DNA of 64,000 nt from contig CAWIIB010000009.1 of NCBI GenBank assembly GCA_963836075.1, positions 800,001-864,000 on the forward strand, read 5' to 3'. The position numbers and the translations under genes are program-made. Shown here one piece after another: positions 1,629-57,265 of this stretch. Within the stretch, counting starts at the first letter, position 1. The number at the start of each line of letters is the position of its first letter. The notes beneath the pieces were generated by a model that did not search any database, had not been told where the DNA came from, and saw only the letters and a program-made list of their open reading frames with translations. This DNA is from an uncultured Acidobacteriota bacterium. GTDB lineage: Bacteria; Acidobacteriota; JAQAZP01.

Positions 1629-4600
1629 TTACTGCCGGGCGCCCACCCGGAAGTGCTCAAGCCCCACCTCGCGGACCGAGCGGCGGTAGAGCGCGCTGGC
1701 GTTGAACGCCGGCACCCGCGGGGCGGGGCGTGCCGAGGCATCGGCCACCACCAGGCTGCCGCTGCCGTCCCAGGCGTGCTCCTCGCCGGTGTTCCAGAGG
1801 AAGGGCAGGTGCGGTCCCAGGTGGCCACGAGCCGCTTCGGCGATACCGGCGGTGAGCGCCTCCACGTTGTCCGGCACGTCGAGGCCCAGCTGGGCGGCCA
1901 GGCCGGCCAGCACTTGCCAGCCGGCGGCGCCGGCGGGCGGTTTGACCGCCGGGCTGTAGCGGAGCACCCGACCCTCGAAGTTGCAGCGGGTGCCGCCGCT
2001 CTCCAGGAAGGTGCTCCCCGGGATGGCCACGTCGGCGAAGAGGGTGGTCTCGGTCTGGGCCCAGTCCACCGCGGCGAGGAACTCCACGCCGCCGAAGTAC
2101 GAGGCCACGCGGTCGGTGCTCATCGGGTCCTCGCTGATCACCAGCGCGGCCTTGATCTTGCCCTCGCGGAGCATGCCGAACAGCTCTTCCCTGGTCCTGG
2201 CCCCGGGAAGCCCGTTGGCCGCAACCCGGCCCACGGTAAAGGCCGGGTCGGCGCCGCTGATCTCCATCCCCGCGCCATTGGCGGCCAGGGAGGGGATGAT
2301 CAGTTCACTGGAACCGCCGCGGGCCCGGATCAGCAGGGCCAGGTTGGCCACCACCTGCAGGTCGCCGGGGGAGAGATCGCGTGAGCGGTCCGGGCACTGC
2401 ACCAGCACCACCTTCTTCGCCGCGGCGATCATCTCCGCCGCCTTTTTCGACTGTGACTGTTCCACGCCGGTGATCGAGCAGGTGGTGTCGGCGTCGTAGC
2501 CGGTGATGTGGTCGAGGAAGGCCTTGCCTCCGGGGAGCTGCTCCACGGATTCCCGCGGAAAGTGGCCCTGTTCAATCAGTCCCCGGGTGACGCAGTTCCA
2601 GAAGCGGGCCGCGGTACCCCGCATCGGGTCGAGATAGAGGTCGGCCAGATCGACCAGCGCCTGTTTCGTCGACCCGGTGACGATCAGCTTCGTGCCCGCC
2701 TTGGCCGCGTCGATGATCTCGCTGCCCAGGATCAGGAAGTAGTTCTGGGGATCGATGTTGTTGCAGATGATCAGGTCGGCGTCACGGAGCGCCGTGCGGT
2801 CGGCGGTGGAGGCGGTGAAGCCGAACGACTGGTCCAGCGCGCCGCTGGTGCCCCCGGTCTCCAGGATGGCGATGGAGGTGATGTTGTTGGTCCCCAGCCC
2901 CTCCCGGGCGATCCGCCCGGCCAGGTACATCTCTTCGTTGGTCACGTCGGGGTAGAGAAAGACGCCCACCGATTCGGGGCCGTGCTTCTCGGCCACGGCA
3001 CGCAGGCCCTCGGCCGCCCGCTTGTACGCCTCTTCGTGGGACACCGCACGGTGCTCCATTCCCTCCCTGATCCGCGGGCCGTCGAGGCGCTTGCCGCGGA
3101 TGAACAGTTCGGTGCCGAAGCGGCCGTCGTGACAGAGATACTCGCCGGGCACGCCCGAGGGACGGACGAAGTAGCGGGTGTCCGAGATGCCGCAGACGGT
3201 GATCGGGCAGCCGATGGAGCAGAAGCCGCAGTGGCTCTTCTCCAGCTCGAGGTCGAGAGCCGCCCGGCCTTCGTAGGCGAACTTGGCGCTGATGGCGCCG
3301 GTGGGACAGGCGTCGATACAGTTGCCGCAGGAGATGCAGCTGGTCTCCACCAGCGGGTCGTTCATCGCCGGGCGCATCTCGGCCTGGAAACCGCGGTTGA
3401 TCAGCCCCAGGGCCGAGATGGGCAGCACCCGCTCGCAGGTGCGGATGCAGCGGGCGCAGAGGATGCACTTGTTCGGGTCGTAGATCACGTAGGGATGGCG
3501 GTCGTCCACCTTGTGCTTGCGCACGTAGCCCTTGAAGTGGTCCATGTCCACTTCGTATTCCTCGGCCAGCAGCCGCAGGTCGCACCAGTCAAAGGCCAGG
3601 CAGCCGCAGGAGAGGCAGCGGTGCGGCCTCGTGTTCCATGTCCTCGTGGTCATAACCGGTGGACACCTCGGCAAAGCTGCCCTTGCGCTGCTCCACCGGG
3701 ATGGTGTGCACCTCGTGGCGCGGGCTCTGGGGGATCTCACCCAGCTCCTTCTTGCCCGGGCGGGCCCAGAACTCCTTGGTCACGCCGAACGGCTCCTGCT
3801 CCAGCGGTTCGCCGGAAAGGAAGGCGTGGATCGCCCGGGCCGCGCGCTGGCCGTCGCGGATGGCGTCGATGACCACCGTGGGGCCGTCGTCGGCCGCGTC
3901 GCCGCCGGCATACATCCCCTCGACGTTGGTTTCCATGGTCCTGGTGTCGATGTCGAAGGTGGCCCAGCGGGAGACGCCCGGCTCGGCCTCCTGGCCGCTG
4001 AGAATCTCTTCGATGAGCGGGGTCTGGCCGATGGAGGGCATGGCCCAGTCGCAGGGCAGGTCGAAGTCGGAGCCTTCCTGGGGCACCGGCCGGCGGCGGC
4101 CCGAGGCGTCGGGCTCGCCCAGGGTCATGCGCACGCAGCGCAGCGCCTTGAGACTGCCGTCCTCCTTGCGCACGATGCCCACCGGGGCCATCAGCTCCAT
4201 CAGCTCGATGCCCTCTTCGAGCAGGTCGTGCGACTTCCACTTCGTCGGCCGGCATCTCCGCCCGGGTGCGGCGGTAGAGCACGATCACCTTGTCGCGCCT
4301 TCAGCCGCCAGGCGGTGCGGGCCACGTCCACCGCGGTGTTGCCGCCGCCGATCACCACCACCGTGCCGGTCATCGGCTCGGGCTTCTGGGTCTTCTCCAG
4401 CAGGAAGTCGACGCCGCGCACCACGCCCGGGGTCTCGTCCTCGCCCTTGACATACATCCCCTTGCCGCCCGAGGCGCCGGGAGCGAGGAAGACCGCGCCG
4501 TGCTCGGCACGCAGCTGGTCGAGGGTGACGTCCTTGCCCACCCGCATGTCGCAGCGGATCTCGGCGCCGGCCTTGCGGATGTAGTCGATCTCCTCGTCCA

Positions 4601-5333
4601 GGTCGGCCTTGGGCAGCCGGTACTCGGGGATGCCGTAGCGCAGCATGCCGCCGGGCGCCGGCAGCGCCTCGTAGATCACCGGATCGTAGCCCTTGCGCCC
4701 CAGGAACCAGGCGGCGGTGAGGCCGGCCGGGCCGCTGCCCACGATGCCCACGCTCTTGCCCCGGGAGGGCTCGCGCACCGGGTCGTGGTCAAAGGCCTCG
4801 GGCATGTCGGTGACATAGCGCTTGATGTTGTTGATGCCCACCGGGGCGTCCACGTCGCAGCGGCGGCAGACCACCTCGCACTTGCGGACGCAGATCCGGC
4901 CGCAGATGCCGGGCAGCGGGTTGGTCTCGCGGATCAGGTCCACCGCCTTGCCGTACTCGCCCATGTCGGCCAGGGCGATGTAGCCCTGGACGTCCACGTG
5001 GGCCGGGCAACCCAGCGTGCAGGGGGCCAGGCAGTCGGCGTAGTGGTTGGAGAGCAGCAGCTCCAGCGCCGTGCGTCGCGAGCGCACGATCCGCTCGTTC
5101 TTCGTCGTGACCTTCATCCCCGGGGCCACCGGGGTGGCGCAGGAGGGGGCCAGGCCGGGCCGCCCCTCGATCTCCACCACGCAAAGGAAGCAGGAGGCGT
5201 AGGGTTTCAGTTCCGGCGAGTGGCAGAGGGTGGGGATGGTGTCCAGCTCGTGCTCCTGCACCACCTCGAGGATGGTCTGCCCCGCCCGGGCCTCGATCTC
5301 TTTGCCGTTGATTTCAAGGGTGATGGTGCTCAT
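1629..5333 (-). CDS. Large Fe-S flavoprotein: [2Fe-2S] + GltD/NfnB-like FAD domain + 2[4Fe-4S] + molybdopterin-oxidoreductase-like domain (StnC-like); split by ~3 frameshifts
   Basis: Track ORFs 4200..5333 (PTLCH..CFLCVVE..PSC, GSGPAG, GGGNTA), start of 3737..4288 (VLYRRTRAEMPA), 3589..4200 (AGGDA) and 1629..3740 (KCILCARCIRTC, CISCGNCIDACP, CGFCSIGC, ADVAIPGSTFLESGGTRCN) join into one ~1230-aa protein. Frameshifts near 4290, 4230 and 3625. Confidence 0.85.
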
Positions 5334-7711: not shown

Positions 7712-8698
7712 CTACATATCTTCCAGTTTGATGATGCCGGCTTCCTTGACCCGCAGAACCCCGTCGATCTGCGAGAGCTTCTCGATTATTTTCGGGGTTT
7801 TGCCGAAGGCGCCGACCTCGGAGATGATGCCGATCAGCTTGGTCCCGTCATCCACCATGTCACAGAACAGCACCTCGTCGAGGAAGGTCAGGGTGGTGAA
7901 GACCTGCTGGAAATATTCCTTGTCGATGTCGACGATGACATAGCTGCGAAGCGCCGACGGGTCGGGCGATTCGCCGTCAGCCGGCTCGCTCACCGCGGCC
8001 CTGTAAGTGGTGATGAACTGGTCCACGTGCCGGTCGAGCCGCGGGCGCTCCACCCGGGACAGCGAGACCACCTGCACGCCCTCCACCGAGCGAACCTGCT
8101 GCTCCAGTGCGTCCATCGCCGCTTCGTTGGTCGCCTCCAGCTGGCAGATGATGTCCACGTCTCCGCGCACCGCGTCGCAGGCCGCCATCCCCTCGAGGCC
8201 CCGCAACTCGCGATAGATCTCCATGTCCCGGCTGCGGTCCTCGATACGGATGGTGACATAGGCGGTCATCACCTCGCGGATCTCGGCCTCGGTTGCCTCA
8301 TCCCCGCCGTCGGCGGTGGTGGCCCCGGGCTCCAGGGCCTTCAAGGCTTCCACCAGCTGGGTGATCTCGAACGGCTTGTCGAGGAACCCGGTGTTCGGCT
8401 GGGCCAGGGCCTCGGCCTCGATCTGCTCGTCGCCGAACCCGGTGATGATCAGCACCGGCAGGTCGGGGAAGGTGCGCTTGATCACCTTGAGGATCTTCAG
8501 CCCGTCGATGTCGGGCATGAAGATGTCGGAGATCAGGTAGTGATACCCCTCTCCCGCCTGGCGGGAGCGGTGCAGTTCGTGGATCGCGGAGATGCCGTCC
8601 GGGCAGGCCGTGCAGGAGTAGCCTTCCTGGGTCAGGCCGAAGGTCAGGTTGCGGCGGATCTCCGCTTCGTCATCGATGATCAGGACACGCTGGCTCAC
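7712..8698 (-). CDS. Response regulator: receiver domain plus Lrp/AsnC ligand-binding-like output domains
   Basis: VLIIDDE, ISDIFMPDIDG, IITGFG and FLDKPF define the receiver. TAYVTI...CDAVRGDVDII resembles the AsnC/RAM fold. GTG start at 8698 follows GGAGG. Confidence 0.85.
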   Translation of the reverse strand: MSQRVLIIDDEAEIRRNLTFGLTQEGYSCTACPDGISAIHELHRSRQAGEGYHYLISDIFMPDIDGLKILKVIKRTFPDLPVLIITGFGDEQIEAEALAQPNTGFLDKPFEITQLVEALKALEPGATTADGGDEATEAEIREVMTAYVTIRIEDRSRDMEIYRELRGLEGMAACDAVRGDVDIICQLEATNEAAMDALEQQVRSVEGVQVVSLSRVERPRLDRHVDQFITTYRAAVSEPADGESPDPSALRSYVIVDIDKEYFQQVFTTLTFLDEVLFCDMVDDGTKLIGIISEVGAFGKTPKIIEKLSQIDGVLRVKEAGIIKLEDM

Positions 8699-11960: not shown

Positions 11961-12004
11961 CAGAAAAAGGTGACAGGCACAAAGCTGCCAGTCACCCTTT
12001 TCTG
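11961..12004. repeat. GGTGAC-type palindrome between convergent genes (possible bidirectional terminator); core repeated at 20723-20747
   Basis: cagaaaaaggtgacaggcacaaagctgccagtcacccttttctg; gacaggcacaaagctgccagtcacc also occurs at ~20723. Confidence 0.7.
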
Positions 12005-20454: not shown

Positions 20455-20790
20455 CGGCGGTCTCCACCTCCTTCACCTCGGCGCTGCTGCGTTTTTATCT
20501 CATCATTCGTTCGTAGTTGATGACTTCCACATATTACATACTCTGAGCATTCTCGAGACGTGCAATCGCAACGTGAAATAGTGGACAGATCCTCATCAGC
20601 CTGCAATTACTCAGGGAATTGAAGGTTCCGGCCGAACGACAGGCGGGAAAGTAAAGCTCACGAGCATCATTTGGCATGGGCAGGGAGGGGCGTAAGATCC
20701 GCAAGTGCCTGGGACTAGAGGGGACAGGCACAAAGCTGCCAGTCACCCCCGGGCGGCCCCGTCCCGGCCCCATCCACCAGTAAAATCAGC

Positions 20791-46049: not shown

Positions 46050-48512
46050 ATGGTGAGGGACGTGCCAGCACAGCGATCCAGACGGGGGGATGTTCGGCGG
46101 AGCATCCACCTCGGATTGCTGGTGCTGGCCATCACCCTCCTCTTTCTTCCTGCCTGCCGTGAAGAACCGGCACCCGCCCCCGACCCCGGCGGATCAGCCC
46201 CCTCCGGATACATCCCCCTTGCCCCGCTGATGAAGATGACCGCCGGGCCGCTGCTCGACAATGAGATCGCTCCCCTCCAGCCCCGCCTGCTCCACGCCGC
46301 CGAACGCCGCGACGACGAGACCGTGATCAGCGGCCGGATCATCCGCCCGGAGTGGTATGCCTACGACCCGGATCACGGACCGCAGGCCATGGATCATCCG
46401 GCCGGAACCCCGGGGATGCTGCCGCTGGACCCGGAAGAGACCGGCCGGGCCTTCCTGATGACCAGCCAGATCAAGTTCGCCGAGGTGGACCTGGTGGCGA
46501 TCGATATCTCCTGCGAGCAGCAGGGACTGCTCTCCTTTGTCTGGGACAACGAGGCATTTCCCCGGGGGGAGCTGCCCAGCAGCTACCTCTTCAGCCTTGA
46601 CGGCCGGCCCGGCACCCGGGAATACCTGGTGCCGGTGCACGCCATGCCCAACTGGATCGGCCGGGCCCGCTGGTTCGGGCTGCAGGCGCTGGAGCTTGAA
46701 CAGCCGGCGGTGATCCACGCCATCCGCTTCCTCGAGGCCGGGCCCGCGGTTCGCCAGGCGATGCAGCAAGCCCGAGGGGAAACACCGTCGGGCCGGCTGG
46801 TGCTGGGGGATGAGAGCCGCCCGGCATTCCACGCCCCCAGCGGCACGGTGTACGAGGTGGAGACGGAAGTCCCCCAGGGTGCACTGCTGCACACCGGGTA
46901 TGGCTTCTTCCCCGATGTCTGGCGCAAGCAGCAGCGAGGCGTGATCTTCCGGGTGGAAGCGCTGACCGAGGGGGATGGCCAGAGCCGGGTCCTGCTGGAC
47001 AGGTTTCTCGACCCCAAAGACTGGATCGGGTCGAGGCTCTGGCAGGACGAACAGCTCGACCTCGGGGAGCTGGCCGGCCGGAGTGTGACCCTGCGCTTCT
47101 CCACCCTGCTGCCGGAGCCCGGCGAGGGGGACGAAGAAAAGCCGGCGCCCGGGCCGCTGGACAACTATGCCGCCTGGAGCCCGCCGGCCCTGGTGGTGCA
47201 CGGCTCCCGGAACCTCGAAGCTCGGCGCAACGTCATCGTCTGGCTGGTGGACGCCCTGCGCGCCGACCGGCTCTCGGCCTACGGTGCGGACCGCCGCACC
47301 TCGCCGCACCTCGACCGCCTGGTGCGTGAGGGGCTGCTCTTCACCCGGCCCCGGGCCCAGGCCTCCTGGACCGCGGCCTCCACCGGCTCGCTGTTCACCG
47401 CCCTCTACCCCTCGCGCCACGGCGCCGAGCGGGAGAAGCAGCGGCTGCTCCCCGGCTGCGTCACCCTGGCCGAACGGCTGGAAGCCGCCGGCTTCTTCAC
47501 CATGGGCCTGGTGGCCAACGGCCACGTGAAACCGCTGATGAACTTCGACCAGGGCTTTGACCGCTACGCCTTCCTCCGCGGCCGCGGCGACCCGCCCCAC
47601 GCCGCCGCCGACCTGGTGCTCCAGCACCTGCGCCCCATGCTGGAGCAGGCCGCCGACAAACCGTTTTACCTCTACGTGCACAGCGTCGACCCCCACGGGC
47701 CGTATAGTCCGCTGGCGCCCTACGACTCGCTTTTCACACCGTCGGGTTACGAAGGGACGATCGACGGCAGCTATCAGCCAGACGACTTCCGCGGCCGGCC
47801 GCTGGACCAGGTGAGCGAGGCGGACCTGGCCCAGCTGAAGGGGCTCTACGACGGCGAGATCGCCTGGAGCGACCTGCACCTGGGGATGCTGGTGGCCGAG
47901 CTGCGCCAACTGGGCCTGCTGGAGAAGACGCTGATCCTGGTCACCGGCGACCACGGCGAGGAGTTCCTCGACCACGGAGGCTGGGACCACGCCCGGACGC
48001 TCTACAGCGAACAGCTGCGGGTGCCGCTGGCCGGACGGCTGCCAATTGACGCACGGCAGGACCACCCCGCCGGCAGCGTGATTCATGAACCGGCCCGTCT
48101 GGTGGACATCTACCCCTCGGTGCTCGACTTTCTCGGGGTGGCGTCCAGCCCGGACCAGCTGGCCGGTCTGGACGGCCGGTCGTTTTTCACCGGGGCGGAG
48201 GTCGGCAGGACCGGCGAAGGGGAGCGCCTGCTCTTCAGCGAGGAGAACAAGGCCGAGGACCTGCTCTTCTCAGTGGAGCAGGGCCGCTACAAGCTGATCC
48301 GCCGGCTGAAGCCCGAACCCGGGGACGAGCTCTACGACCTGCAGGCCGACCCGGGGGAGACACGCGACATCGCCGCCGATTACCCCGAGCTGGCAGAGCG
48401 CCTGGCCGAAGCCGGTGAAGAGATCCGCCGCCGTCGATCACCGGAGCGGCAGGCCGTGGAACTGGACCAGGCCACCCGGGAGGAGCTCCGGGCCCTGGGC
48501 TACATGGAGTAG
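46050..48512 (+). CDS. Sulfatase/alkaline-phosphatase-superfamily lipoprotein
   Basis: NVIVWLVDALRAD, SWTAASTGSLFT, HSVDPHGPY, YDGEI, GDHGEEF, ELYDL..DPGE, LRALGY. Confidence 0.88.
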   Translation: MVRDVPAQRSRRGDVRRSIHLGLLVLAITLLFLPACREEPAPAPDPGGSAPSGYIPLAPLMKMTAGPLLDNEIAPLQPRLLHAAERRDDETVISGRIIRPEWYAYDPDHGPQAMDHPAGTPGMLPLDPEETGRAFLMTSQIKFAEVDLVAIDISCEQQGLLSFVWDNEAFPRGELPSSYLFSLDGRPGTREYLVPVHAMPNWIGRARWFGLQALELEQPAVIHAIRFLEAGPAVRQAMQQARGETPSGRLVLGDESRPAFHAPSGTVYEVETEVPQGALLHTGYGFFPDVWRKQQRGVIFRVEALTEGDGQSRVLLDRFLDPKDWIGSRLWQDEQLDLGELAGRSVTLRFSTLLPEPGEGDEEKPAPGPLDNYAAWSPPALVVHGSRNLEARRNVIVWLVDALRADRLSAYGADRRTSPHLDRLVREGLLFTRPRAQASWTAASTGSLFTALYPSRHGAEREKQRLLPGCVTLAERLEAAGFFTMGLVANGHVKPLMNFDQGFDRYAFLRGRGDPPHAAADLVLQHLRPMLEQAADKPFYLYVHSVDPHGPYSPLAPYDSLFTPSGYEGTIDGSYQPDDFRGRPLDQVSEADLAQLKGLYDGEIAWSDLHLGMLVAELRQLGLLEKTLILVTGDHGEEFLDHGGWDHARTLYSEQLRVPLAGRLPIDARQDHPAGSVIHEPARLVDIYPSVLDFLGVASSPDQLAGLDGRSFFTGAEVGRTGEGERLLFSEENKAEDLLFSVEQGRYKLIRRLKPEPGDELYDLQADPGETRDIAADYPELAERLAEAGEEIRRRRSPERQAVELDQATREELRALGYME

Positions 48513-48611
48513 AGCTCGCCGCGTACCCCCTTTTTCCTTTTCATGGACAATCCATTCCGGTAGCATTGCCGAAAAGGGCGTGGTGCGCCCTCCACCTCTT
48601 CGGGGGTAAAC

Positions 48612-51146
48612 ATGAAAAGACTGCTGACGATTCTCCTGGTCCTGTCTCTTTCCTCCCTTTGCGCCAACGCGGCCACCATCCGCGTGCCGACAGACCAGCC
48701 CACCATCCAGGCCGGGATCAATGCGGCATCGGACGGCGACACGGTGCTGGTGGCCGACGGCACCTACACCGGCTATGGGAACTGGGACATCAGTTTCGCC
48801 GGCAAAGCGATCATCCTCCGTTCGGAGAACGGACCACAGAACTGCATCGTCGATGCCAATGGCAAGGACCAGGTGTTCCGCATCTTCCGGGGTGAAACCA
48901 GGGGCACTGTTGTCAGCGGGCTGAAGATCATCGGCGCGAATCATTGGGGGATTGAGATCATCGACTCATCCCCGACAATCCATAACTGCGTGGTGGAGGG
49001 CAACGCCAGGGGGGTCAGGATTGATACGGAGGTGTTTGATGTCACGGCCGCCCCCTCGATCCAGGGGACCCGTGTCCGCAACAACGCCCAACAGGGAATT
49101 AAAATCGAGAACTCTTTTGCTCGCATCATCGATTCAGTGATCAGCGATAACGGCATCCCCGGCTCCGCCGGATCGGGCGGGATTTACATTCATCAAAGTA
49201 CTCTCACCCTCGAGAACTGCATTGTCAAACGTAACTTCACCACGGACGACGGGGGAGGACTTTACGCCAGCGACGGAGGCTATGGGGGGGGAGGGTGTTC
49301 TGTGCGGCTGACGAACTGCACCTTTGTCGACAACATCGCCCAGGGCTACGGTGGCGGGCTCCGCAGTGGTGATGTGAGCACTGTCCGTATGGAGAACTGC
49401 ATCTTCACCGGGAACAGCGCCGGGACCGGTGACCAGCTGGCCTTCTTCAACTGGTATTACTGGCCAAGTGATATCTCGCTCCGCTACTGCGATGTGGTGG
49501 GGGAAATCTACGACGAGACCTGGGCAGATTTCGGCCCGGGAATGCTCTATGAGGACCCGCTCTTTGTCACCGGCCCGAAAGGTGCCTTCTACCTCAGCCA
49601 GACGGCCGCCGGTCAGGGTGTGAACAGCCCCTGTGTCGATGCCGGCGACCCGGAGAACCTGATGATCCGCGGCACCACCCGCACCGACTCGGTTCTGGAT
49701 GACGGGGTGGTGGACATGGGGTATCACTATCCGGATCCAGAAGAAGCGTTGTTGCCCGACACCCTGCTGCTCAGCGGCCCCGAATCACCGTACTACAATG
49801 CCTACAATGCCCGTGTCACCACCCCGGCGGTGGTCTTCAGCTTCAGCGGCATCGACCCGGATCATCAATCCCCGGATCTCAGCTACTCCTGGCGGATAAA
49901 CGACGAACCGTGGTCCGCCTGGTCCCTCAGGACCTGGGCCGCCATCGGCGGCCTGGACGACCAGAGCCCGCAGATGATGTTCGAGGTCCGGGCCCGCGAT
50001 CCCCAGGGGGATGTGGATCCCTCACCGGCACGCCAGGGCTTCTACTACTACGAACCATGGCAGCTCGATGAACTCACCCACCTGGTCATCGGACCAGGCC
50101 CCGGGCCACACAACCCCCCGCTGGTCCGCACCAGCCAGGGTGAGTGGCTGGCCTATTCGGTGATGCGCTACGGCGTCAACTTGGCCGCCGGTGATATCGA
50201 TGGTGACGGCCTCGACGAAGTGATCACCGGACCGGGGCCGGGAGCGGTCTTCGGCCCCCATGTCCGCTGTTTCCAGCCTGACGGCACAGTGGTACACAAT
50301 GCCGGCTTCATGGCCTATGGCACTCTCAAGTACGGCGTCAAGGTGGCGGCCGGTGACGTGGACGGTGACGGCTTCGACGAGATCATCACCGGGGCGGGGC
50401 CCGGTGCCGTCTTCGGCCCCCACGTGCGCGGCTGGAACTGGGACAACGGACCGGCCGCGGCCCCGATCTCCGGCATCAACTTCTTTGCCTACGGCACCCT
50501 GCGCTGGGGGGTCAACGTGGCCTGCGGCGACATCGACGGCGACGGGATCGACGAGATCATCACCGGCGCCGGCCCTGGTGTGGAGTTCAGGCCGCACGTG
50601 CGCGGCTGGAACTTCGACGGCAGCGGGACCTCCCCGGTGAGCGGCGCGAGCTACTTCGCTTTTCCTGCGCTTCAATGGGGGGTCACCGTGGCCTGCGGCG
50701 ACATCGACGGCGACGGGCGGGACGCGATCATCACCGGCCTCGGTCCCGGGTACGATTGCGCCGCCCGTGTTCGTGCCTGGGATTACAGCAATGGCGACAT
50801 CACGCTGGTGGAGCACTACGATTTCTTTGCCTACGACTACCCCCACTTCGGCACCGTGGTGGCCGCATCTACCCTCACCGGTGGCGGCACGGACGATATC
50901 GTCACCATGCCCGGCCCCGGTCCATTGTGCAGCGCCCGGCTGGAAGCCTGGCATTTGTATGGCAGCACCGTCCAGCCTCACGGAGTTCCCTGGGGCAGGG
51001 ATTTCCTCGACAGCTGGATGACCCACGGAGGAAGCGTGGCCGGCTCTAAAAAGGGTTGGACGTGGGGGGGCGACCAGCAGAATGCCATGTCGCTTCATCT
51101 GCCTGTCGGTGATGGGCCATATCGGGAGGAGCTCGAACATGAATAG
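48612..51146 (+). CDS. Secreted right-handed beta-helix protein with C-terminal DxDGDG/GPGPG module
   Basis: ATIRVPTDQPTIQAGI..DGDTVLVADGTY, NC(T/I) beta-helix repeats, SPCVDAG..DMGYHY, Ig-like linker, repeat module. Confidence 0.85.
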   Translation: MKRLLTILLVLSLSSLCANAATIRVPTDQPTIQAGINAASDGDTVLVADGTYTGYGNWDISFAGKAIILRSENGPQNCIVDANGKDQVFRIFRGETRGTVVSGLKIIGANHWGIEIIDSSPTIHNCVVEGNARGVRIDTEVFDVTAAPSIQGTRVRNNAQQGIKIENSFARIIDSVISDNGIPGSAGSGGIYIHQSTLTLENCIVKRNFTTDDGGGLYASDGGYGGGGCSVRLTNCTFVDNIAQGYGGGLRSGDVSTVRMENCIFTGNSAGTGDQLAFFNWYYWPSDISLRYCDVVGEIYDETWADFGPGMLYEDPLFVTGPKGAFYLSQTAAGQGVNSPCVDAGDPENLMIRGTTRTDSVLDDGVVDMGYHYPDPEEALLPDTLLLSGPESPYYNAYNARVTTPAVVFSFSGIDPDHQSPDLSYSWRINDEPWSAWSLRTWAAIGGLDDQSPQMMFEVRARDPQGDVDPSPARQGFYYYEPWQLDELTHLVIGPGPGPHNPPLVRTSQGEWLAYSVMRYGVNLAAGDIDGDGLDEVITGPGPGAVFGPHVRCFQPDGTVVHNAGFMAYGTLKYGVKVAAGDVDGDGFDEIITGAGPGAVFGPHVRGWNWDNGPAAAPISGINFFAYGTLRWGVNVACGDIDGDGIDEIITGAGPGVEFRPHVRGWNFDGSGTSPVSGASYFAFPALQWGVTVACGDIDGDGRDAIITGLGPGYDCAARVRAWDYSNGDITLVEHYDFFAYDYPHFGTVVAASTLTGGGTDDIVTMPGPGPLCSARLEAWHLYGSTVQPHGVPWGRDFLDSWMTHGGSVAGSKKGWTWGGDQQNAMSLHLPVGDGPYREELEHE

Positions 51147-53571
51147 ACTGCTGACGATCCTCGTCGCCCTGGCGCTCTCCTCCCTCTGCGCTTCCGCCGC
51201 CACCATCCGCGTGCCGGCGGACCAGCCCACCATCCAGGCCGGCATCGACGCGGCGGTGGACGGTGACACGGTGCTGCTGGCCGACGGCCGCTACACCGGC
51301 GAGGGGAACCGGGGCATCGAGTTTCACGGCAAGGCGATCACCCTCCGCTCGGAGAACGGCCCGGTGAACTGCATCGTCGACGCGGAGTTCGTGGAGGAGT
51401 GGGACGAGGACGTCGTCCTCTCCTTCAGTGAGAACGAAGGCCGGAACACGGTGGTGGACGGGCTGACAATTACCGGGGGATTCAGGTGGGGAATCTACGT
51501 TAGCGATCCCGCCCTTCAACCCTCTCCGATCATTCGCAACTGCATCATTACCGGGAACAACAACGGCCTCGGTCTCGGTTACGGCTGACCGCTGGTGGAG
51601 ACCACCCGGGTGGTGGAGAACTTCGGCAATGGCATCTCTTCCAGTGGCGACAGTCACATCGTCGACTGTGTGATCAAGGACAACGGTGGCTCCGGGATCA
51701 AATGTTACGGATCCGGCAGGCTGGTGGAAAACTGTCTGATCGCGGAGAACGGGTCCGACGGCCTGGGCGGCGGGATCGAGAGCAGGTGGGGCGAGTCGAT
51801 CTTTCGCAACTGCACCATCGTCGGCAACAGCGCCGAAACCGGGGGCGGCCTGCTCATCTGGCGCGACGGATCAATCATCCTGGAGAACTGCATCGTGGCC
51901 GGCAACAGCGCCAGCGACCTGGGCGACCAGTGCGCCCTGCTGGTGGACTACTACAGTTACTACACCTATGCCGGCAGCCTGACCCTCAACCACAGCGACG
52001 TGCACGGGGAGATCCATGTCGATCCCTGGTGCGACCTCTTCACCGGTCCGGGGGTGATCGACGAGGACCCGCTCCTTGTCAGCATCCCCTGGGGCGGCTA
52101 CTACCTGAGCCAGGTGGCCGCCGGTCAGGGTGCGGACAGCCCCTGTGTCGACAGCGGCAACCCGCAAACGGAGATGGTCCACGGCACCACCCGCACCGAC
52201 TGGGCCCAGGACGACGGAACCGTCGACATGGGCTACCACTACCGGGACCCGGACGAGGGCCCCCTGCCCGACACGATCGTCACCAGCGGCCCAAAGCACT
52301 GTTCAGGGGTGAGGGTCCCGGCGGTCACCTTCGCTTTCACCAGCACAGACGAGGAGTATCCCCCCTCGGATCTCGACTACTCCTGGCGGCTGAACGACGG
52401 GCCCTGGTCCGACTGGTCATCCAACACCTGGATCGCGTTCACCGAAACGGTGCTGGAATCCTGGAACCACTTCGAGGTGCGGGCCCGTGATCCCGAGGGG
52501 GACATCGACCCGATCCCAGCGGAGCAGATTTTTTCTCAGCACGACAACTGGCCCGAAGAGCGGTATACCCGTCTCGCCGTGGGGCCCGGCCCCGGGCCGT
52601 TCAACCCCCCGGTGGTGCGGACCAGCCTCGATCAGTGGCTGGCCTACGGGGTGATGCGCTACGGGGTGAACCTGGCCGCCGGCAACATCGACGGTGACGG
52701 CCCCGACGAGCTGATCACCGGGCCGGGGCCGGGGGCGGTGTTCGGCCCCCATGTCCGCTGTTTCCGCGGCGACGGCACGGTGATCAGCGGCGCCGGCTTC
52801 CTGGCCTACGGCACCAACAAGTATGGCGTCATCGTGGCCGCCGGCGACGTGGAGGGGGACGGCTACGACGAGATCATCACCGGCGCGGGCCCGGGTGCCG
52901 TCTTCGGGCCCCACGTCCGGGGCTGGAACTGGGACGGCGGCCCGGCGGTCCAGCCGATGAACGGCATCAGCTTCTTTGCCTACGGCACCCTGACGTGGGG
53001 GGTCAACGTGGCCTGCGGCGACATCGACGGCGACGGCCGGGACGAGATCATCACCGGCGCCGGGCCCGGCGCGGTATTCGGCCCCCACGTCCGCGGCTGG
53101 AGCTACGACGACGGCGAAACCGCACCCATGGCCGGAACCAGCTTCTTTGCCTATGACACGCCCAGTTTCGGGGTCAACGTGGCCTGCGGCGACCTGGATG
53201 CCGACGGCATCGACGAGATCATCACCGGCGCCGGACCGGGCCCCACCTTCGCTTCCCACGTCCGGGCCTGGCGTTATGACGGCGCAACCGTATTCAGAAT
53301 GCCGCACGTCGACTACATCGCCTACGAGGACCTGCGCTTCGGTGTGGTGGTGAGCGCCGCCGACGTGGACGGGGACGGCCGGGACGAGATCCTCACCATG
53401 CCCGGGCCGGGGCCCGTGAACCAGGCCTGGCTGCGGGCCTGGGACGTGGAAAGCGGCACGGTATCCATGACCGGCTACCCCTGGGACTGGAACTTCCTCG
53501 ATGACTGGCTGACCCATGGCGGCCACGTGGCCGGGTCGAAGAACGGCTGGGCGCCGCCTGAAAACAAGTAG
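51139..53571 (+). CDS. Tandem paralog of 48612..51146, interrupted by an in-frame TGA at 51586-51588 (pseudogene or base error)
   Basis: Track ORFs 51082..51588 and 51595..53571 are in the same frame and colinear with the upstream paralog. Confidence 0.8.
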
Positions 53572-53705
53572 TATCCCGTAGCGGTTCATCCCCGTATAAT
53601 GAACTCAAGACCGCTCGTCCAGGGGAAGCAGATCACGAACCGCTATCCCTGGACCTCAGTGAAACCGTGCGCTCTCATCACGGCCACGTCATATCGGAGG
53701 GATGC

Positions 53706-55637
53706 ATGCCCGGAAACTGCTTCACCTGTCCGGCAAACCACTCCCGCAACGGGGTTCAGGCTCTGATTCTTTTTGCCGTCCGTTCGGCACTCCCGCTCTT
53801 CCTCGCCATGGCGCTCGCCGTCCCGGCCGGCGGCGTCACCCTGGTATCCAGGTCCACCGGCCTCGACTCACCGGACAAGGAGGAGGGAAAGACCGAATAC
53901 GAGCTGGCCGACTTCAATGGCGACGGCCACCTGGACATCGTCTCGGTGGGCGATCACGGATCGCCCTTCGTCAACAGCGATCAACACGGGATCATGGTCT
54001 GGCTCGGCGATGGCAACGGCACCTGGACCGTGCACCAGTCGGGAAATTTCGGCTACGGCGGCTGTGCGGCGGGCGACCTCGACCTGGACGGCGTGCCGGA
54101 CCTGGTCTGGGGGATTCACCACGACTGGGGAAGCACCGGGTTCGGCGACACACTGCTCGGTGCGGCACTGGGGGACGGCAGCGGCGCGGCCTGGACGCCC
54201 TGGGGTGCCGGCCTGGCCACCAGCGGCGAGGAGTGGGGCATGTTCGCCACCGGCCTGGCCGATTTCGATGTCAACGGCCGCCTCGACCTGATCTCCCAGT
54301 CCTTTGGCGGCAGTAACGGCTTGCGGCTCTATGAGAATCACGGCGACGGCACCTGGAGCCAGGCCTGGGCCGCCACCGGGGGTTCGGTGGGCTACACGCT
54401 GAAAACCGGCGACATCAACGCCGACGGGTTTCCCGACGTTGCCTGCACCCGTTACGGAACGGTAGTCTTTCTCGGCGATGGAGCCTTCGGTTTCACCGCG
54501 GCGGTGAGCGGCCTGCCCGCGGGATTCATCTCCGGAGTGGACCTGGGGGACATCGACGGCGACGGCCGGGACGACCTCGTTCTCTGCAACAGCGACGGAG
54601 GTATCGGCTGTTACACCTTTGACGATCTGTCGGCATCCTGGTCTTCCGGCTCGGTGGGGCTGCCCGGTACCGGGGGATACAACCGGGCCCAGCTCGGTGA
54701 TCTGAATGGCGACGGGCATCTCGACATCGTCGGTTACGACGGCCCGGGCGGTCAGGTGTTTCTCGGAAACGGCGCCGGAACCTGGACCGCCGACGCATCC
54801 TGGACCATGCCATCCCCGGGGGACGTTTCAGCGTTGCGGGTTGACGGTGATGTGGACCACGACGGCCGGGAGGACATCGTCATCGTCTCATCGATGAGCG
54901 GGTTTCCCTTCTACCGCAACCAACTCCGGGTCTATTCCCCATGGCAGGAACCGGCAGTGCTGTCGGTGCGGGTGGTTTCGCCGTCGGGCGGCGAAACACT
55001 GCAGCTGGGCTCGATTCGCTGGATCCGCTGGCTGGCCGCCGTGCCGCCGGCCGACGGGCCGGCCGACGTGGAGATTCTGCTCTCGCGCTCCGGCCCGGAT
55101 GGTCCCTGGACCACCATCGCCTCGGGGCTGCCAAACAGCGGCTGCCACCAGTGGTCGGTCGGCGCGTCCGGCCCATCCTCCACCTGCCGCTTGCGGGTGG
55201 TCATCACCACCGATTCCGGCAGTGCCATCGCCGATTCCGCCGCCGACTTCACCCTGGCCGGCGAGGGTTTTGAGACGCTGGACGCCTCGCTCGGTTGTCA
55301 GCCCGATTCAGGTGTGCTGCCGTTCCAGACCGCAGTGCGCGTGGAGCTGACCAACCTTTCCGCCATCCGGCGCCGAATTGCCGCGCGAATCGACGTGGCC
55401 CTGGCCGGAGGGCAAATCTACACCAGCTGGCGGGCCGGCTACACCAATGTCAACGGCGGTGAAATCCGGGTGGAGAGCTGGGCCCAGAGCCTTCCGGCGG
55501 TGGGCTCCCTGGTCGGGGACAATCTCTTCCAGTTGCAGGCCGAAGACGTGACCCCTCCGCCTTACAACCAGCCGCCCAATCCTCCGGCCGGGGGCACAGC
55601 CAGCGGCAGCTGTACGGTGATTGGGGTGGCGCCTTGA
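53706..55637 (+). CDS. Secreted FG-GAP/VCBS repeat protein with Ig-like and distinct C-terminal domain
   Basis: Multiple D(F/L/I)(N/D)GDG.LD repeats, VVSPSGGETL...IRW domain, C-terminal EDVTPPPYNQPP. Confidence 0.8.
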   Translation: MPGNCFTCPANHSRNGVQALILFAVRSALPLFLAMALAVPAGGVTLVSRSTGLDSPDKEEGKTEYELADFNGDGHLDIVSVGDHGSPFVNSDQHGIMVWLGDGNGTWTVHQSGNFGYGGCAAGDLDLDGVPDLVWGIHHDWGSTGFGDTLLGAALGDGSGAAWTPWGAGLATSGEEWGMFATGLADFDVNGRLDLISQSFGGSNGLRLYENHGDGTWSQAWAATGGSVGYTLKTGDINADGFPDVACTRYGTVVFLGDGAFGFTAAVSGLPAGFISGVDLGDIDGDGRDDLVLCNSDGGIGCYTFDDLSASWSSGSVGLPGTGGYNRAQLGDLNGDGHLDIVGYDGPGGQVFLGNGAGTWTADASWTMPSPGDVSALRVDGDVDHDGREDIVIVSSMSGFPFYRNQLRVYSPWQEPAVLSVRVVSPSGGETLQLGSIRWIRWLAAVPPADGPADVEILLSRSGPDGPWTTIASGLPNSGCHQWSVGASGPSSTCRLRVVITTDSGSAIADSAADFTLAGEGFETLDASLGCQPDSGVLPFQTAVRVELTNLSAIRRRIAARIDVALAGGQIYTSWRAGYTNVNGGEIRVESWAQSLPAVGSLVGDNLFQLQAEDVTPPPYNQPPNPPAGGTASGSCTVIGVAP

Positions 55638-55674
55638 AGATCGTGGGTGAGGAGCCCGAGATCGGGCTGGCCGG

Positions 55675-56214
55675 TCAGCTCACCAGCAGTATCCCGTAGC
55701 GGTTCATCTCCTTGTCGTAGTCGTCAAGCACCTGGATCGGCTTGCCCGCTCTACTTGCGGTGGCAAAGACATCCACTGCCAACCCTTCGGGTGAGGGCCG
55801 TGCGTTTTTGGGGTGCTCGCAAAGGTCCCGGGTGGGGACGCACTCCTCGCAGAAGTTACAGGGGTCGACGAAGAGCACGAAGGCCTTGTAGAAACCGGCC
55901 AGGAACACCGCCCGCTCAAGGTTGAGCAGACCGCCGTTGATCTTCCGTGTCCACTGATGCCGGTCCTCCGGCTTGTCCACCGTGCCGCTGAACTGCAGCA
56001 GCACGGCGCGCTGGTACTCGGAGAAGAAGCGCTCACATTCGGCCAGGGACGGCACGTTGGGCGGGCAGACGGCGCACTTGCCGAAGTGGTGGCAGCCAAA
56101 CTCGCACTTCATCCTCACCCACTGGGCGGTGACGATCATGTTTGGATCGAGCCAACTGTAGTTGTCGAATCCCCGCTCGCCGAGGATCACTTCCACTCTA
56201 TCCCTGTCGGACAT
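55675..56214 (-). CDS. DUF2284 metal-binding protein
   Basis: WVRMKCEFGC..FGKCAVCPP, PCNFCEEC, CEHP..ARPSPEG, NRYGILLV. Confidence 0.88.
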   Translation of the reverse strand: MSDRDRVEVILGERGFDNYSWLDPNMIVTAQWVRMKCEFGCHHFGKCAVCPPNVPSLAECERFFSEYQRAVLLQFSGTVDKPEDRHQWTRKINGGLLNLERAVFLAGFYKAFVLFVDPCNFCEECVPTRDLCEHPKNARPSPEGLAVDVFATASRAGKPIQVLDDYDKEMNRYGILLVS

Positions 56215-56251: not shown

Positions 56252-57265
56252 TTACTGGTTCCAGAGGAAGAGGATCAGGGCACTGAGCAGGACCAGCAGC
56301 AGGGCCCAGAAGATGATCGCCCAGCGGGTGGCCTTCCTGGCGCGGCGGCCGTCCCACCAGCTGCGCGGCCGGATGCGCTGGAAGAGGAAGGTCACCACCC
56401 CGGCCAGGTTGACGCAGGCCACGTTGGTGGTGAAGAGGGCCGTGGCGCGGATGGCCAGGTCGGGGCGGCCGGCGCCGAGCATCAGGCCGGCGGTGACCAG
56501 CGGGGGCAGCAGGGCCACCGCCACCATCACCCCGATCAGCGCCGCGGGCAGACCGGAGGTGAAGGCCAGTGCCCCGGCGACGCCGGCGGCCGAAGCGAGG
56601 AGGACGTCGGAGAGGCCCAGCGTGGTGCGGGCGGCCAGCTGGGAACTGGCCGGGTCCACCCTGACCAGCAGGCCGAAGACCACGGCGATAGCCGTGGCCA
56701 GCACGATGCCGGCGGTGAAGGTGCGGATCGACTTGAAGAGCAGCGGCGTGTCGCCGAGGGTCACTGCCAGGGCCATGGCCACGTTGGGGCCGAGGAGCGG
56801 GGCGATGACCATCGCCCCGATGATGATCGCCACGTCGCCGCGCACCAGGCCGATGGCCGCCACCAGGGTGGAGAGCGCCACGGTGAGCAGGAAGATGAAG
56901 GTCAGCTTTGTCCCGCTGGTGACCGTTTCGTAGAGCTCTTCCCGGGAGACGCGGTTGGGGGTGCGCAGCTCGGGCTTCTTCTCCTTCTTCTCTTCCGGCG
57001 GCGGCTTCTCCTCTTCCAGCTTGGGCAGGGTGGCCTGCACCGCCAGCAGCATCACCCGGAACTGCGGCTTCATGCCGAAGCGCCGCTGCAGGAGGTCCAT
57101 CACCTCCTCGGTCTTGCCGGTGGGCAGCAGCACCCGGACCCGTCCCAGCCCTTCGGCAAGGGTCTCCGACCAGGGTTCGACGCCGTGGGCATCTCCCAGC
57201 AGTGTGGTCAACTCGCGGAGGTCGCTCTCCGGAACGATGATCTCCATCATGCGCAGGGTGGACAC
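56252..57265 (-). CDS. TIGR00341/DUF389 family membrane protein
   Basis: RVSREELYE, IIGAMVIAPLLGP, LIGVMVAVALLPP. Confidence 0.88.
   Translation of the reverse strand: MSTLRMMEIIVPESDLRELTTLLGDAHGVEPWSETLAEGLGRVRVLLPTGKTEEVMDLLQRRFGMKPQFRVMLLAVQATLPKLEEEKPPPEEKKEKKPELRTPNRVSREELYETVTSGTKLTFIFLLTVALSTLVAAIGLVRGDVAIIIGAMVIAPLLGPNVAMALAVTLGDTPLLFKSIRTFTAGIVLATAIAVVFGLLVRVDPASSQLAARTTLGLSDVLLASAAGVAGALAFTSGLPAALIGVMVAVALLPPLVTAGLMLGAGRPDLAIRATALFTTNVACVNLAGVVTFLFQRIRPRSWWDGRRARKATRWAIIFWALLLVLLSALILFLWNQ

Follow-up and report, generated by a model that had tools for sequence, protein, structure and literature searches.

The 64,000-nucleotide stretch of DNA analyzed here (the window) raises the question of why the 3′ end of a gene encoding a DUF2284 protein is found three times, with a copy adjoining each of three plus-strand genes and a divergence that grows with distance from the intact gene. 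A sequence-only reading of the window had described this pattern, which our analysis bore out, and had attributed it to repeated insertion of new genes at the end of the DUF2284 gene. The locus belongs to G000, probably a metagenome bin (94.7% complete, 4.6% contamination), and was compared with G001 and G002, the other two genomes of the genus available. Its left anchor is a sulfatase gene on the plus strand (46050–48512; Pfam Sulfatase, E 1.7e-36), a side that is colinear at 82–85% with contigs C209 of G001 and C113 of G002; its right anchor is the minus-strand gene of a DUF389 membrane protein (56252–57265), colinear in G001 and in the metagenome contig L007. Between them lie X1 (48612–51146, plus strand), encoding a secreted beta-helix and FG-GAP protein of 844 aa; its paralogue X2 (51139–53571, plus strand); gene 3 (53667–55637, plus strand), encoding an FG-GAP repeat protein of 656 aa (Pfam FG-GAP_3, E 3.8e-37) that ends in a multi-copy C-terminal domain; and the live DUF2284 gene (55675–56214, minus strand), whose product matches PF10050 at profile positions 2–160 of 161 (E 2.9e-47). 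X2 contains an in-frame TGA (51586–51588), for which selenocysteine was considered and rejected: Rfam gave no match, and none of five paralogues has a Cys in that column.

The DUF2284 reading frame ends in DKEMNRYGILLVS followed by the stop codon, and the C-terminal motif M-[ND]-R-[YF]-[GA]-x-L-[LM]-[VI] is present in the 30 closest homologues listed. The live G000 protein ends LLVS, and three close orthologues (G001, L007 and a second metagenome contig, L006) end LLVD; further DUF2284 proteins, at 80% identity, are P0004 (602-kb contig) and P0005 (13-kb contig). The 21-mer AGTATCCCGTAGCGGTTCATC from this tail recurs exactly, as had been claimed, at 53570–53590 and 55688–55708, with no third site in the window at three or fewer mismatches, and none of 100 shuffled sequences gave two matches. 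Repeat grouping extended it to a 30-nt unit in three copies, at 53564–53593 (the reference), 55682–55711 in the live gene (90%) and 51073–51102 (67%). The first of these, which we call scar 1, is a truncated old DUF2284 tail on the minus strand (MNRYGILLV), its translation reading MNRYGILLVF, and a blastn search of the genome with the DUF2284 tail recovered it at E 4.6e-4. When the last 30 residues of DUF2284 were compared by tblastn with the 6.2 Mb of the genome, the top two non-self matches were scar 1 and the more distant copy, scar 2. Neither of the two, at 21.9 bits each (E 1.8) against 21.6 bits for the next match, is significant by itself at genome scale; their significance comes from position, within 5 kb downstream of the gene and on its strand.

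Measured from the 3′ anchor of the X genes, CCCAGCCGTTC, scar 1 occupies the position that the live DUF2284 tail takes in G001, L006 and L007. Its leucine codons, CTA CTT, are those of the live tails of L006 and L007, unlike the live G000 tail, which reads CTG CTG ... AGC TGA. In L006 and L007 the TAG stop of an X2-like gene falls inside a leucine codon of the live DUF2284 tail, and the CTA of that tail is the reverse complement of the stop. Across eight genes of the window CTA accounts for 0 of 388 leucine codons and CTT for 20 of 388, which indicates that the overlap holds these codons in the tail. The last codons and TAG stop of X2 are located within scar 1, and the 3′ part of X2 is 88.6% identical to the X2-like gene of L007. 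Scar 1 is the former junction at which X2 and DUF2284 converged and overlapped: the ancestor carried the two genes in this configuration, with the X2 TAG inside a DUF2284 leucine codon, as L006 and L007 still do. A simple consensus scan called no sigma-70 promoter in scar 1 or in the upstream region of gene 3.

The gene now separating scar 1 from the live tail is not a foreign arrival but a resident neighbor. Orthologues of gene 3 occur in both same-genus genomes (C209 of G001; C113 and C233 of G002) with 84–88% identity, or 80–84% in amino acids, and the gene 3 region is 85% identical and colinear with these genomes at the nucleotide level. In G001, C209 carries the sulfatase gene, gene 3 and the 5′ part of an X gene, and C310 carries X, X1′, X2′ and the convergent DUF2284 gene with no gene 3 in between; this order was bridged over a contig break whose ends overlap by 799 nt at 89% identity. 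In G002, C113 carries the sulfatase gene and the 5′ part of gene 3, and C233 its 3′ part followed by X1″ and the 5′ part of X2″, which is 86% identical to the 5′ part of X2. The DUF2284 and DUF389 genes were not detected in G002 with the queries used, and its contig stops inside X2″, so this genome is uninformative on the DUF2284 side. The gene order is therefore variable, as the comparison with relatives proposed earlier was meant to reveal: the sulfatase gene, gene 3 and the X genes (then DUF2284 in G001) follow one another in the two relatives, versus sulfatase, X1, X2, gene 3 and DUF2284 here, and in both, gene 3 precedes the X array instead of following it. The X1 upstream region is likewise located after gene 3 in the junction sequences of G001 and G002. 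These results show that gene 3 and its upstream region (~2.1 kb) shifted by ~5 kb to the DUF2284 end in this lineage. Gene 3 lies between a truncated and a live tail, so that an insertion at the DUF2284 3′ end displaced the older one, and the difference in age between the two relics fits two successive events at one gene end. This part of the original proposal stands; its description of the inserted genes as new does not, gene 3 being resident in both G001 and G002.

Three breakpoints delimit the change. Breakpoint 1 (48513–48611, plus strand) comprises ~18 nt past the sulfatase stop and then the X1 upstream region, with BLAST homology beginning at 48528 for G002 and at 48533 for G001. Breakpoint 2 is clean and falls at 53590|53591, from where the window corresponds to the G002 sequence 22 nt past the sulfatase stop; the gene 3 upstream region (53591–53666, plus strand), which starts with CCCGTATAATG, was relocated along with gene 3. 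Breakpoint 3 is held or bordered by the spacer between gene 3 and DUF2284 (55638–55674) and may fall anywhere from there to the Val178 codon, with no single-base placement. The gene 3 block is flanked by a 28–30 nt direct repeat of the DUF2284 tail. Short matches read by eye at the junctions were CCCTT (at breakpoint 1, not significant), ATCCC(C)GTA and GCCGGyCAGCT, the best of them being reached in 25/300 shuffles. Also by eye, the vacated site and the moved block have edges that agree to within ~5–20 nt. No DUF2284-tail-like sequence was found at the sulfatase–gene 3 and gene 3–X junctions of G001 and G002, no significant remains of gene 3 at 48513–48611 or of X at 55638–55674, and no intermediate, such as a genome with two gene 3 copies, in the two other genomes of the genus. 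We also aligned 55628–55682 to eight candidate sources of the spacer, none significantly; the best match (10/11 nt, to the G002 gene 3 flank) was equaled by 25/300 shuffles. Since no spacer alignment is significant, it stays a guess that the last DUF2284 codon and stop might derive from the gene 3 flank.

Scar 2 (51073–51126, minus strand) is a truncated DUF2284 tail of older date (..PIWPITDRQMKRHGILLV); the region 51066–51131 reads LLPIWPITDRQMKRHGILLVAP on the minus strand, and the best-aligned core is 51073–51108. It matches the tail at 28/36 nt, a score reached by 0/2000 shuffles and 1/20000 random genome windows, which substantiates the diverged third copy noticed earlier. The accompanying statement that its changes fall mostly at third positions agrees with the count (6/9) and is weak statistically (binomial p ~0.04, calculated by hand). 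The C-terminal extension of X1, which overlaps the X2 start, runs antisense through scar 2. Scar 2 and scar 1 are 2491 nt apart, one X1/X2 repeat period, and the 3′ parts of X1 and X2 are 71% identical, similar to the 28/36 nt of scar 2; the last 900 nt of X1 reach at most 72.5% nucleotide identity with any other X gene. Tandem duplication, one of the mechanisms put forward beforehand for the paralogue pair, agrees with scar 2 and this spacing, and we infer that scar 2 is a relic like scar 1 but older, dating from the split of the X1/X2 paralogues. It has K and H at two positions, neither of which occurs there in the 30 closest homologues listed, making decay a likelier source of its appearance than a foreign working allele. 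The G001 X1′/X2′ junction has a shorter scar 2 remnant, and the G002 X1″/X2″ junction has none; since G002 possesses an X2 orthologue, scar 2 either was lost there or is younger than the X1/X2 identities suggest.

Taken together, we consider it probable that the three tail sequences are one live end and two junction relics of rearrangements that duplicated the last 30–60 bases of DUF2284, where this gene runs into a convergent surface-protein gene. The best reading of the process is a duplication-making rearrangement, that is, either duplication and loss or template switching. Gene 3 would have been copied to its new site by a replicative event: by one route a segment comprising gene 3, X1, X2 and the tail would have been duplicated in tandem and the redundant copies then lost; by the other, template switching would have made the copy, after which the old gene 3 was lost. 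The new tail copy would complete DUF2284, with a final S instead of D and the common leucine codon CTG. Scar 2 would have arisen earlier, by a tandem duplication of X together with 36–57 nt of the tail that put the X2 ancestor between X1 and DUF2284. The relics would persist because they keep the two overlapping gene ends whole, and scar 1 in particular because the last codons and stop of X2 sit in it. Another overlapping convergent pair in G000, L039, in which an insertion duplicated the overlap and left both gene ends intact, was counted in favor. Among the points against, duplication and loss requires two further illegitimate deletions, and the near-coincident edges of the vacated site and moved block would also be compatible with a discrete unit that moved by cut-and-paste. 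In addition, the live tail has CTG CTG and scar 1 CTA CTT, so a plain duplication would call for two subsequent synonymous substitutions inside 9 nt, with no change in the neighboring 21 nt; gene conversion from a G001-like allele is an alternative source of the CTG codons.

The known systems closest to this arrangement differ from it in informative ways. Tandem duplication–random loss, a model for changes in gene order, was established on animal mitochondrial genomes (PMC5745709, PMC4223735), and the best 8 of 75 literature matches on the model are all mitochondrial, unlike the bacterial chromosome studied here. As in that model, adjacent blocks (gene 3 and X1–X2) are swapped relative to the relatives, and a non-coding relic lies at the new junction, where scar 1 abuts the gene 3 upstream region. 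In contrast, neither an intermediate with both copies nor pseudogene remains were found in comparison with the two other genomes, and the relic is the 30-nt 3′ end of a protein gene kept for the stop codon of a convergent gene. In template switching, or microhomology-mediated break-induced replication, a segment is copied elsewhere, and a return upstream of the point of departure leaves the target with a direct duplication, whose length is arbitrary. The direct target duplication matches, but the three breakpoints show short microhomologies that lack significance, and the old gene 3 would still have to be deleted. Integrative elements that target the 3′ ends of genes carry a replacement end (att core), which resembles the identical 21-nt core on both sides of the insert and the intact target gene; however, Pfam shows no integrase in the insert, the insert is a resident neighbor, its former site has no DUF2284-like core, and its ends are unique. 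Transposon target-site duplications are typically 2–15 bp. Here too a direct repeat of the target flanks the inserted DNA, but at 28–30 nt, and 54–528 nt at other loci, it is far longer and more variable, and Pfam analysis of the segment together with the uniqueness of its ends in 6.2 Mb gave no transposase domain, terminal repeats or same-ended copies.

Those other loci are three more places in G000 where a truncated tail copy and an inserted gene are found beside a target gene, convergent or upstream, that remains intact. At L030, 54 nt are duplicated exactly and the insert is a Peptidase_C25 gene that shares its C-terminal domain with gene 3; at L038, 528 nt are duplicated at 95.6% identity next to a beta-helix gene with the same domain; at L039, the duplication covers ~85–90 nt by eye (57 nt at 98% by blastn) and involves an AAA_14/DUF4143 gene. 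The Peptidase_C25 gene is located at a different locus in G001, whose matching G000 site is empty and lies 1.2 Mb from the position of the gene in G000. The L038 insert is missing from G001 and G002, and its body has no relative in G000, G001 or G002. Since the L030 and L038 inserts are not local copies, they hint at an insertion process more general than local duplication and loss. The C-terminal domain occurs in 203 genes; it had no Pfam, NCBIfam or PDB sequence match, and a language model gave a weak lead to CARDB (score 0.91). A genome scan for exact repeats of at least 20 nt returned 73 isolated pairs, of which three passed the gene-end filter, one being a repeat-motif false positive. A crude blastn search of 11589 ORF tails, at an E cut-off that excluded scar 1 itself, showed no excess of truncated copies downstream (36) over upstream (35). 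Five of seven extra tail-relic candidates were rejected on inspection as antisense or paralogue artefacts.

Set against duplication-making rearrangement, an unrecognized copy- or cut-and-paste of gene-sized cassettes into gene 3′ ends or convergent junctions, with long and variable target duplications, would have hit the DUF2284 end at least twice. L030, L038 and L039 share this architecture, the Peptidase_C25 and L038 comparisons speak for mobile inserts, and the edges of the gene 3 block nearly coincide with those of the vacated site. Nevertheless, the duplication lengths vary widely (30, ~57, ~90 and 528 nt), shared end sequences were not found, and the ends of the gene 3 block are unique across the 6.2 Mb of G000, with no repeated cassette ends. 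The segment 53591–55680 holds one long ORF on the gene 3 strand, in which Pfam gives FG-GAP-type repeats and no recombinase or transposase domain; these observations also lend no support to the site-specific system suggested at the outset. The tail scan showed no downstream excess, some adjacency is expected by chance with 203 domain-bearing genes, and the inspected loci number only four. We therefore regard such a cassette process as unlikely, and hold the same view of its corollary that the moved genes would mostly be secreted-protein genes with the multi-copy C-terminal domain. Equally doubtful is the wider idea of an undescribed replicative insertion process that shuffles and spreads secreted-protein genes in the genus, duplicating 30–530 target bases at gene ends, especially convergent junctions.

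The model of the sequence-only reading, in which foreign surface-protein genes were acquired serially, anchored by homology in DUF2284 with an illegitimate other end, and brought a donor tail along, is highly unlikely. Homology-facilitated illegitimate recombination needs foreign donor DNA and leaves the resident part beyond the illegitimate joint as a relic. A relic of the resident gene would indeed remain here, the live tail differs from scar 1 in its leucine codons as a donor allele would, X1 lacks a close orthologue in G001 and G002 past its first 250 nt, and L038 would fit a donor having the same neighbor gene. But gene 3 is found at the same locus in both same-genus genomes, and gene 3 adjoining DUF2284 was seen in this lineage only; a plausible donor would have it beside a DUF2284 gene with the CTGCTGGTGAGC tail. 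Moreover, aligned with the three close alleles of L006, L007 and G001, DUF2284 is not mosaic, its differences being evenly spread across nine 60-nt bins, and the K and H of scar 2 point the same way; the donor-allele tail and this form of recombination are accordingly not supported. Neither a foreign donor nor a dedicated recombinase left a visible trace, though either may have played a part. It is extremely improbable that the order of X2, gene 3 and DUF2284 is an assembly artefact or a chimeric bin existing in no cell, even though the genome is probably a bin with repetitive X genes. At ~90–95% identity, contigs from two other studies span both X2–scar 1–gene 3 (run X2 record 13; run X8 record 30) and gene 3–DUF2284 (run X2 record 16; run X8 record 32); the bridging of both new junctions by independent contigs excludes the misassembly considered earlier, and the DUF2284 frame is intact at the junction and X2 keeps a working stop codon. 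Breakpoint 1 and scar 2 were bridged by none of the contigs listed, and the X1 body had little contig cover in three of four runs, from which no conclusion was drawn.

The rearrangement at this locus provides a clean, fully traceable bacterial example in which local gene order changes without loss of either of two overlapping convergent genes: the part of DUF2284 containing its neighbor's stop codon is duplicated, one copy finishing DUF2284 and the other staying as the neighbor's end. From such relics the direction and relative age of rearrangements can be read with no need of an outgroup, and they may serve as a practical marker of turnover in fast-evolving arrays of surface-protein genes. 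Should a single mechanism lie behind the pattern at the other loci, the spread of a family of ~200 secreted-protein genes within these genomes would be easier to explain. Were a general insertion process at work, it would cover a family of ~200 members with an unannotated, possibly CARDB-like, C-terminal domain and spare the neighboring genes; the DUF2284 end would then be the record of two or three hits, whose relics could date and order the events.

The minus-strand genes DUF2284 (55675-56214; PF10050, E 2.9e-47) and DUF389 (56252-57265) converge on four plus-strand genes: a sulfatase gene (46050-48512), X1 (48612-51146; beta-helix plus FG-GAP repeats), its paralogue X2 (51139-53571) and gene 3 (53667-55637; FG-GAP_3 repeats). 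A sequence-only reading had described repeated copies of the DUF2284 tail along this array, and these were borne out. An exact 21-mer of the tail occurs at two sites in the window, 53570-53590 and 55688-55708, with no further site at up to 3 mismatches; two sites were reached in 0 of 100 shuffles. A repeat search recovered a 30-nt unit in three copies, starting at 51073, 53564 and 55682. When the last 30 residues of DUF2284 were compared with the whole 6.2-Mb genome (tblastn), the top non-self matches were the truncated copies scar 1 (53564-53593) and scar 2 (51073-51126). Each scored 21.9 bits (E 1.8; next match, 21.6 bits), which is not significant genome-wide alone but becomes so because both lie on the same strand, within 5 kb downstream. 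Scar 2 matches the tail at 28/36 nt, a score reached by none of 2000 shuffles and by 1 of 20000 random genome windows.

The arrangement is real and not a misassembly, since both new junctions are spanned by contigs from two other studies' runs that share ~90-95% identity with the window. The X2-scar 1-gene 3 junction is covered by record 13 of sequencing run X2 (53418-54145) and record 30 of run X8 (53518-53683), and the gene 3-DUF2284 junction by record 16 of run X2 (55577-56137) and record 32 of run X8 (55558-56127). Runs X1 and X4 gave identical pieces; these may represent the source sample and were left out of the independent support.

Gene 3 has orthologues in both of the other genomes of the genus, G001 and G002 (80-84% aa, 84-88% nt identity), so it is a resident and not, as had been proposed, a newly inserted gene. 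In G001, contig C209 reads sulfatase, gene 3, X 5' part; the full order spans a contig break, the two contig ends overlapping by 799 nt at 89% identity. In G002, contig C113 ends with the sulfatase gene and the 5' part of gene 3, and C233 starts with the 3' part of gene 3, followed by X1'' and the 5' part of X2''. The window from 53591 (CCCGTATAATG...) corresponds to the G002 sequence starting 22 nt past the sulfatase stop, and the region upstream of X1, at 48528, to the sequence 3' of gene 3 in both relatives. From these positions beside the sulfatase gene and the matching flanks, gene 3 and its upstream region (~2.1 kb) are best read as having shifted by ~5 kb inside the locus, to a new position in the end of DUF2284. 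A direct repeat of the DUF2284 tail, 28-30 nt long, borders the relocated block.

DUF2284 was present in 3 of the 61 genomes searched, including this one. In G001 (85% aa identity) an X-type gene converges on it and directly adjoins it, without gene 3 between, and the convergence is just as direct in the metagenome contigs L006 and L007 (87% aa identity). The X2-like gene of L006/L007 ends in ..GSKNGWEPSVHK and a TAG stop, the reverse complement of a CTA Leu codon in the DUF2284 tail, which reads ..ATA CTA CTT GTG GAC TGA. Scar 1 carries the same CTA CTT at an equal distance from the X 3' anchor, and X2 in the window still ends in K on the same AAG TAG. Among 388 Leu codons in eight window genes, CTA occurs 0 times and CTT 20 times; given this rarity, both look kept in place by the overlap. 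The shared codons, TAG position and anchor distance together identify scar 1 as the truncated resident tail of an earlier X2/DUF2284 overlap. An insertion between overlapping convergent genes would spare both only where the overlap is duplicated, which would explain why the relics sit precisely at the overlap.

Scar 2 lies 2491 nt from scar 1, exactly one X1/X2 period, at the 3' end of X1, where its antisense reading forms a C-terminal extension of X1. Its identity to the tail is near that of the X1 and X2 3' parts (71%). Two positions of scar 2 read K and H, residues found there in none of the 30 closest homologues among the matches listed; in the 22 of 120 homologues that fit the pattern, these positions are N (18) or D (4) and Y (12) or F (10). 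This looks like decay in place rather than a working foreign allele. At the G001 X1'/X2' junction, a shorter remnant (33/36 nt against the L006 tail plus flank) takes in LLVD and stop, the spacer and the beginning of the X 3' coding end in antisense. We infer that scar 2 is the joint left when X and 36-57 nt of tail were duplicated in tandem at an earlier time, and that relatives have lost it in part or completely. The tandem duplication suggested earlier for the paralogue pair fits this spacing and divergence; no remnant was found at the G002 X1''/X2'' junction, though X2'' is an 86% orthologue of X2, and no close X1 orthologue extends past the first 250 nt.

Replacement of the tail by a donor allele had also been proposed. 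The live DUF2284 differs from L006, L007 and G001 at 71, 73 and 84 of 540 nt, evenly over nine 60-nt bins, with no divergent 3' tract, which argues against it. The live tail has CTG CTG, as in G001, and the relic CTA CTT; this difference could reflect gene conversion, or two synonymous substitutions towards the favoured codon once the gene was freed from the overlap. The last residue encoded by the live gene is S, and in G001, L006 and L007 it is D; alignment demonstrated no source for this new last codon or for the 37-nt gene 3-DUF2284 spacer. A site-specific or cassette system fares no better: neither end of the moved block recurs in the genome, the single long ORF that the block has on the gene 3 strand gives Pfam matches to FG-GAP-type repeats only, and the former site of gene 3 holds no DUF2284-like core.

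Further loci with clean examples of like architecture came out of simple genome scans. At L039 (C1:1676000-1684000), an AAA_14/DUF4143 gene has a 583-aa gene on one side and an AbiEii gene on the other; read by eye, ~85-90 nt are duplicated around it (3740-3830 and 5125-5215; blastn aligns 57 nt, 98%). The duplication holds the overlapping 3' ends of both neighbours, and shows plainly how overlap duplication spares both convergent ends. At L030 (C1:1956000-1969000), a convergent Peptidase_C25 gene separates the carbamoyltransferase 3' end (5207-5266) from its copy 2551 nt downstream (7757-7816; 54 nt exact, ~60 nt with 2 mismatches); the G001 orthologue of the inserted gene lies at a different locus, whose counterpart here is empty. 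At L038 (C1:1632000-1641000), a 528-nt direct duplication (2446-2973 and 4614-5140; 95.6% identity) flanks a 1.6-kb beta-helix gene body with no relatives in the three genomes. The duplication comprises the neighbour's C-terminal domain, a downstream GC-rich stretch that we read as hairpin-like, and 50 nt from the tail of a convergent redoxin/DUF2092 gene. Gene 3 and the inserted genes of L030 and L038 share a ~120-residue C-terminal domain. A general insertion process behind these loci is kept as an alternative, and an improbable one, because crude scans gave no genome-wide excess of truncated tail copies downstream (36 versus 35 upstream).

The shared domain (last ~120-130 aa of gene 3; 55236-55634) ends 203 ORFs in this genome, and tblastn gives 134-184 matches to it in each genome of the genus. 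It matched nothing in Pfam, NCBIfam or PDB sequences; the only lead was a weak language-model match to CARDB, and the domain may serve in sorting or anchoring. X2 has an in-frame TGA at codon 150 (51586-51588), also TGA in its G002 orthologue (86% nt). To judge from dN/dS (0.14 upstream of the TGA, 0.31 downstream), the part of the gene that follows it still looks translated. At this position five paralogues encode R, G, E, S or A, never Cys; the genome encodes tRNA-SeC, no Rfam match was obtained, and a GTG lies two codons 3' of the TGA. Readthrough, selenocysteine or re-initiation could be involved. The G001 orthologues of gene 3 (C209:1599-3533) and Peptidase_C25 (C258:12993-14834) contain one in-frame TGA each, which with X2 suggests that such codons may be common among secreted-protein genes of the genus.

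Other elements were recorded. An exact 26-nt intergenic direct repeat with internal dyad symmetry (GGTGACAGGCA..TGCCAGTCACC) and unrelated flanks brackets an 8.75-kb block (11972-11997 and 20723-20748). On contig C9, a 21-37 nt motif (..CAACGGCCGTGCCACCTGTC.GCAGGTGATGGGT..) recurs in many copies at irregular 0.5-7 kb spacing (~576000-602000), and a 61-nt AT-rich palindromic element (GGGGACGTACATGAATATATGAA...) lies at 933945 and 934881, among several sites, with partial copies elsewhere. ARAGORN reported a tRNA-like gene whose anticodon has four bases (aggg), at 1307917-1308014 on one of the genome's contigs.

The proposal of serial accretion at the DUF2284 3' end holds in part: the copies are real and record two successive rearrangements at one gene end, each creating a duplication, and in the later of them a resident gene changed its place within the locus. 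As far as the available descriptions go, the closest described analogue is the duplication and random loss of mitochondrial genes. With scar 1 identified as the older tail, the change can be polarised with no need of an outgroup. Genome change of this kind is neat but in essence ordinary.
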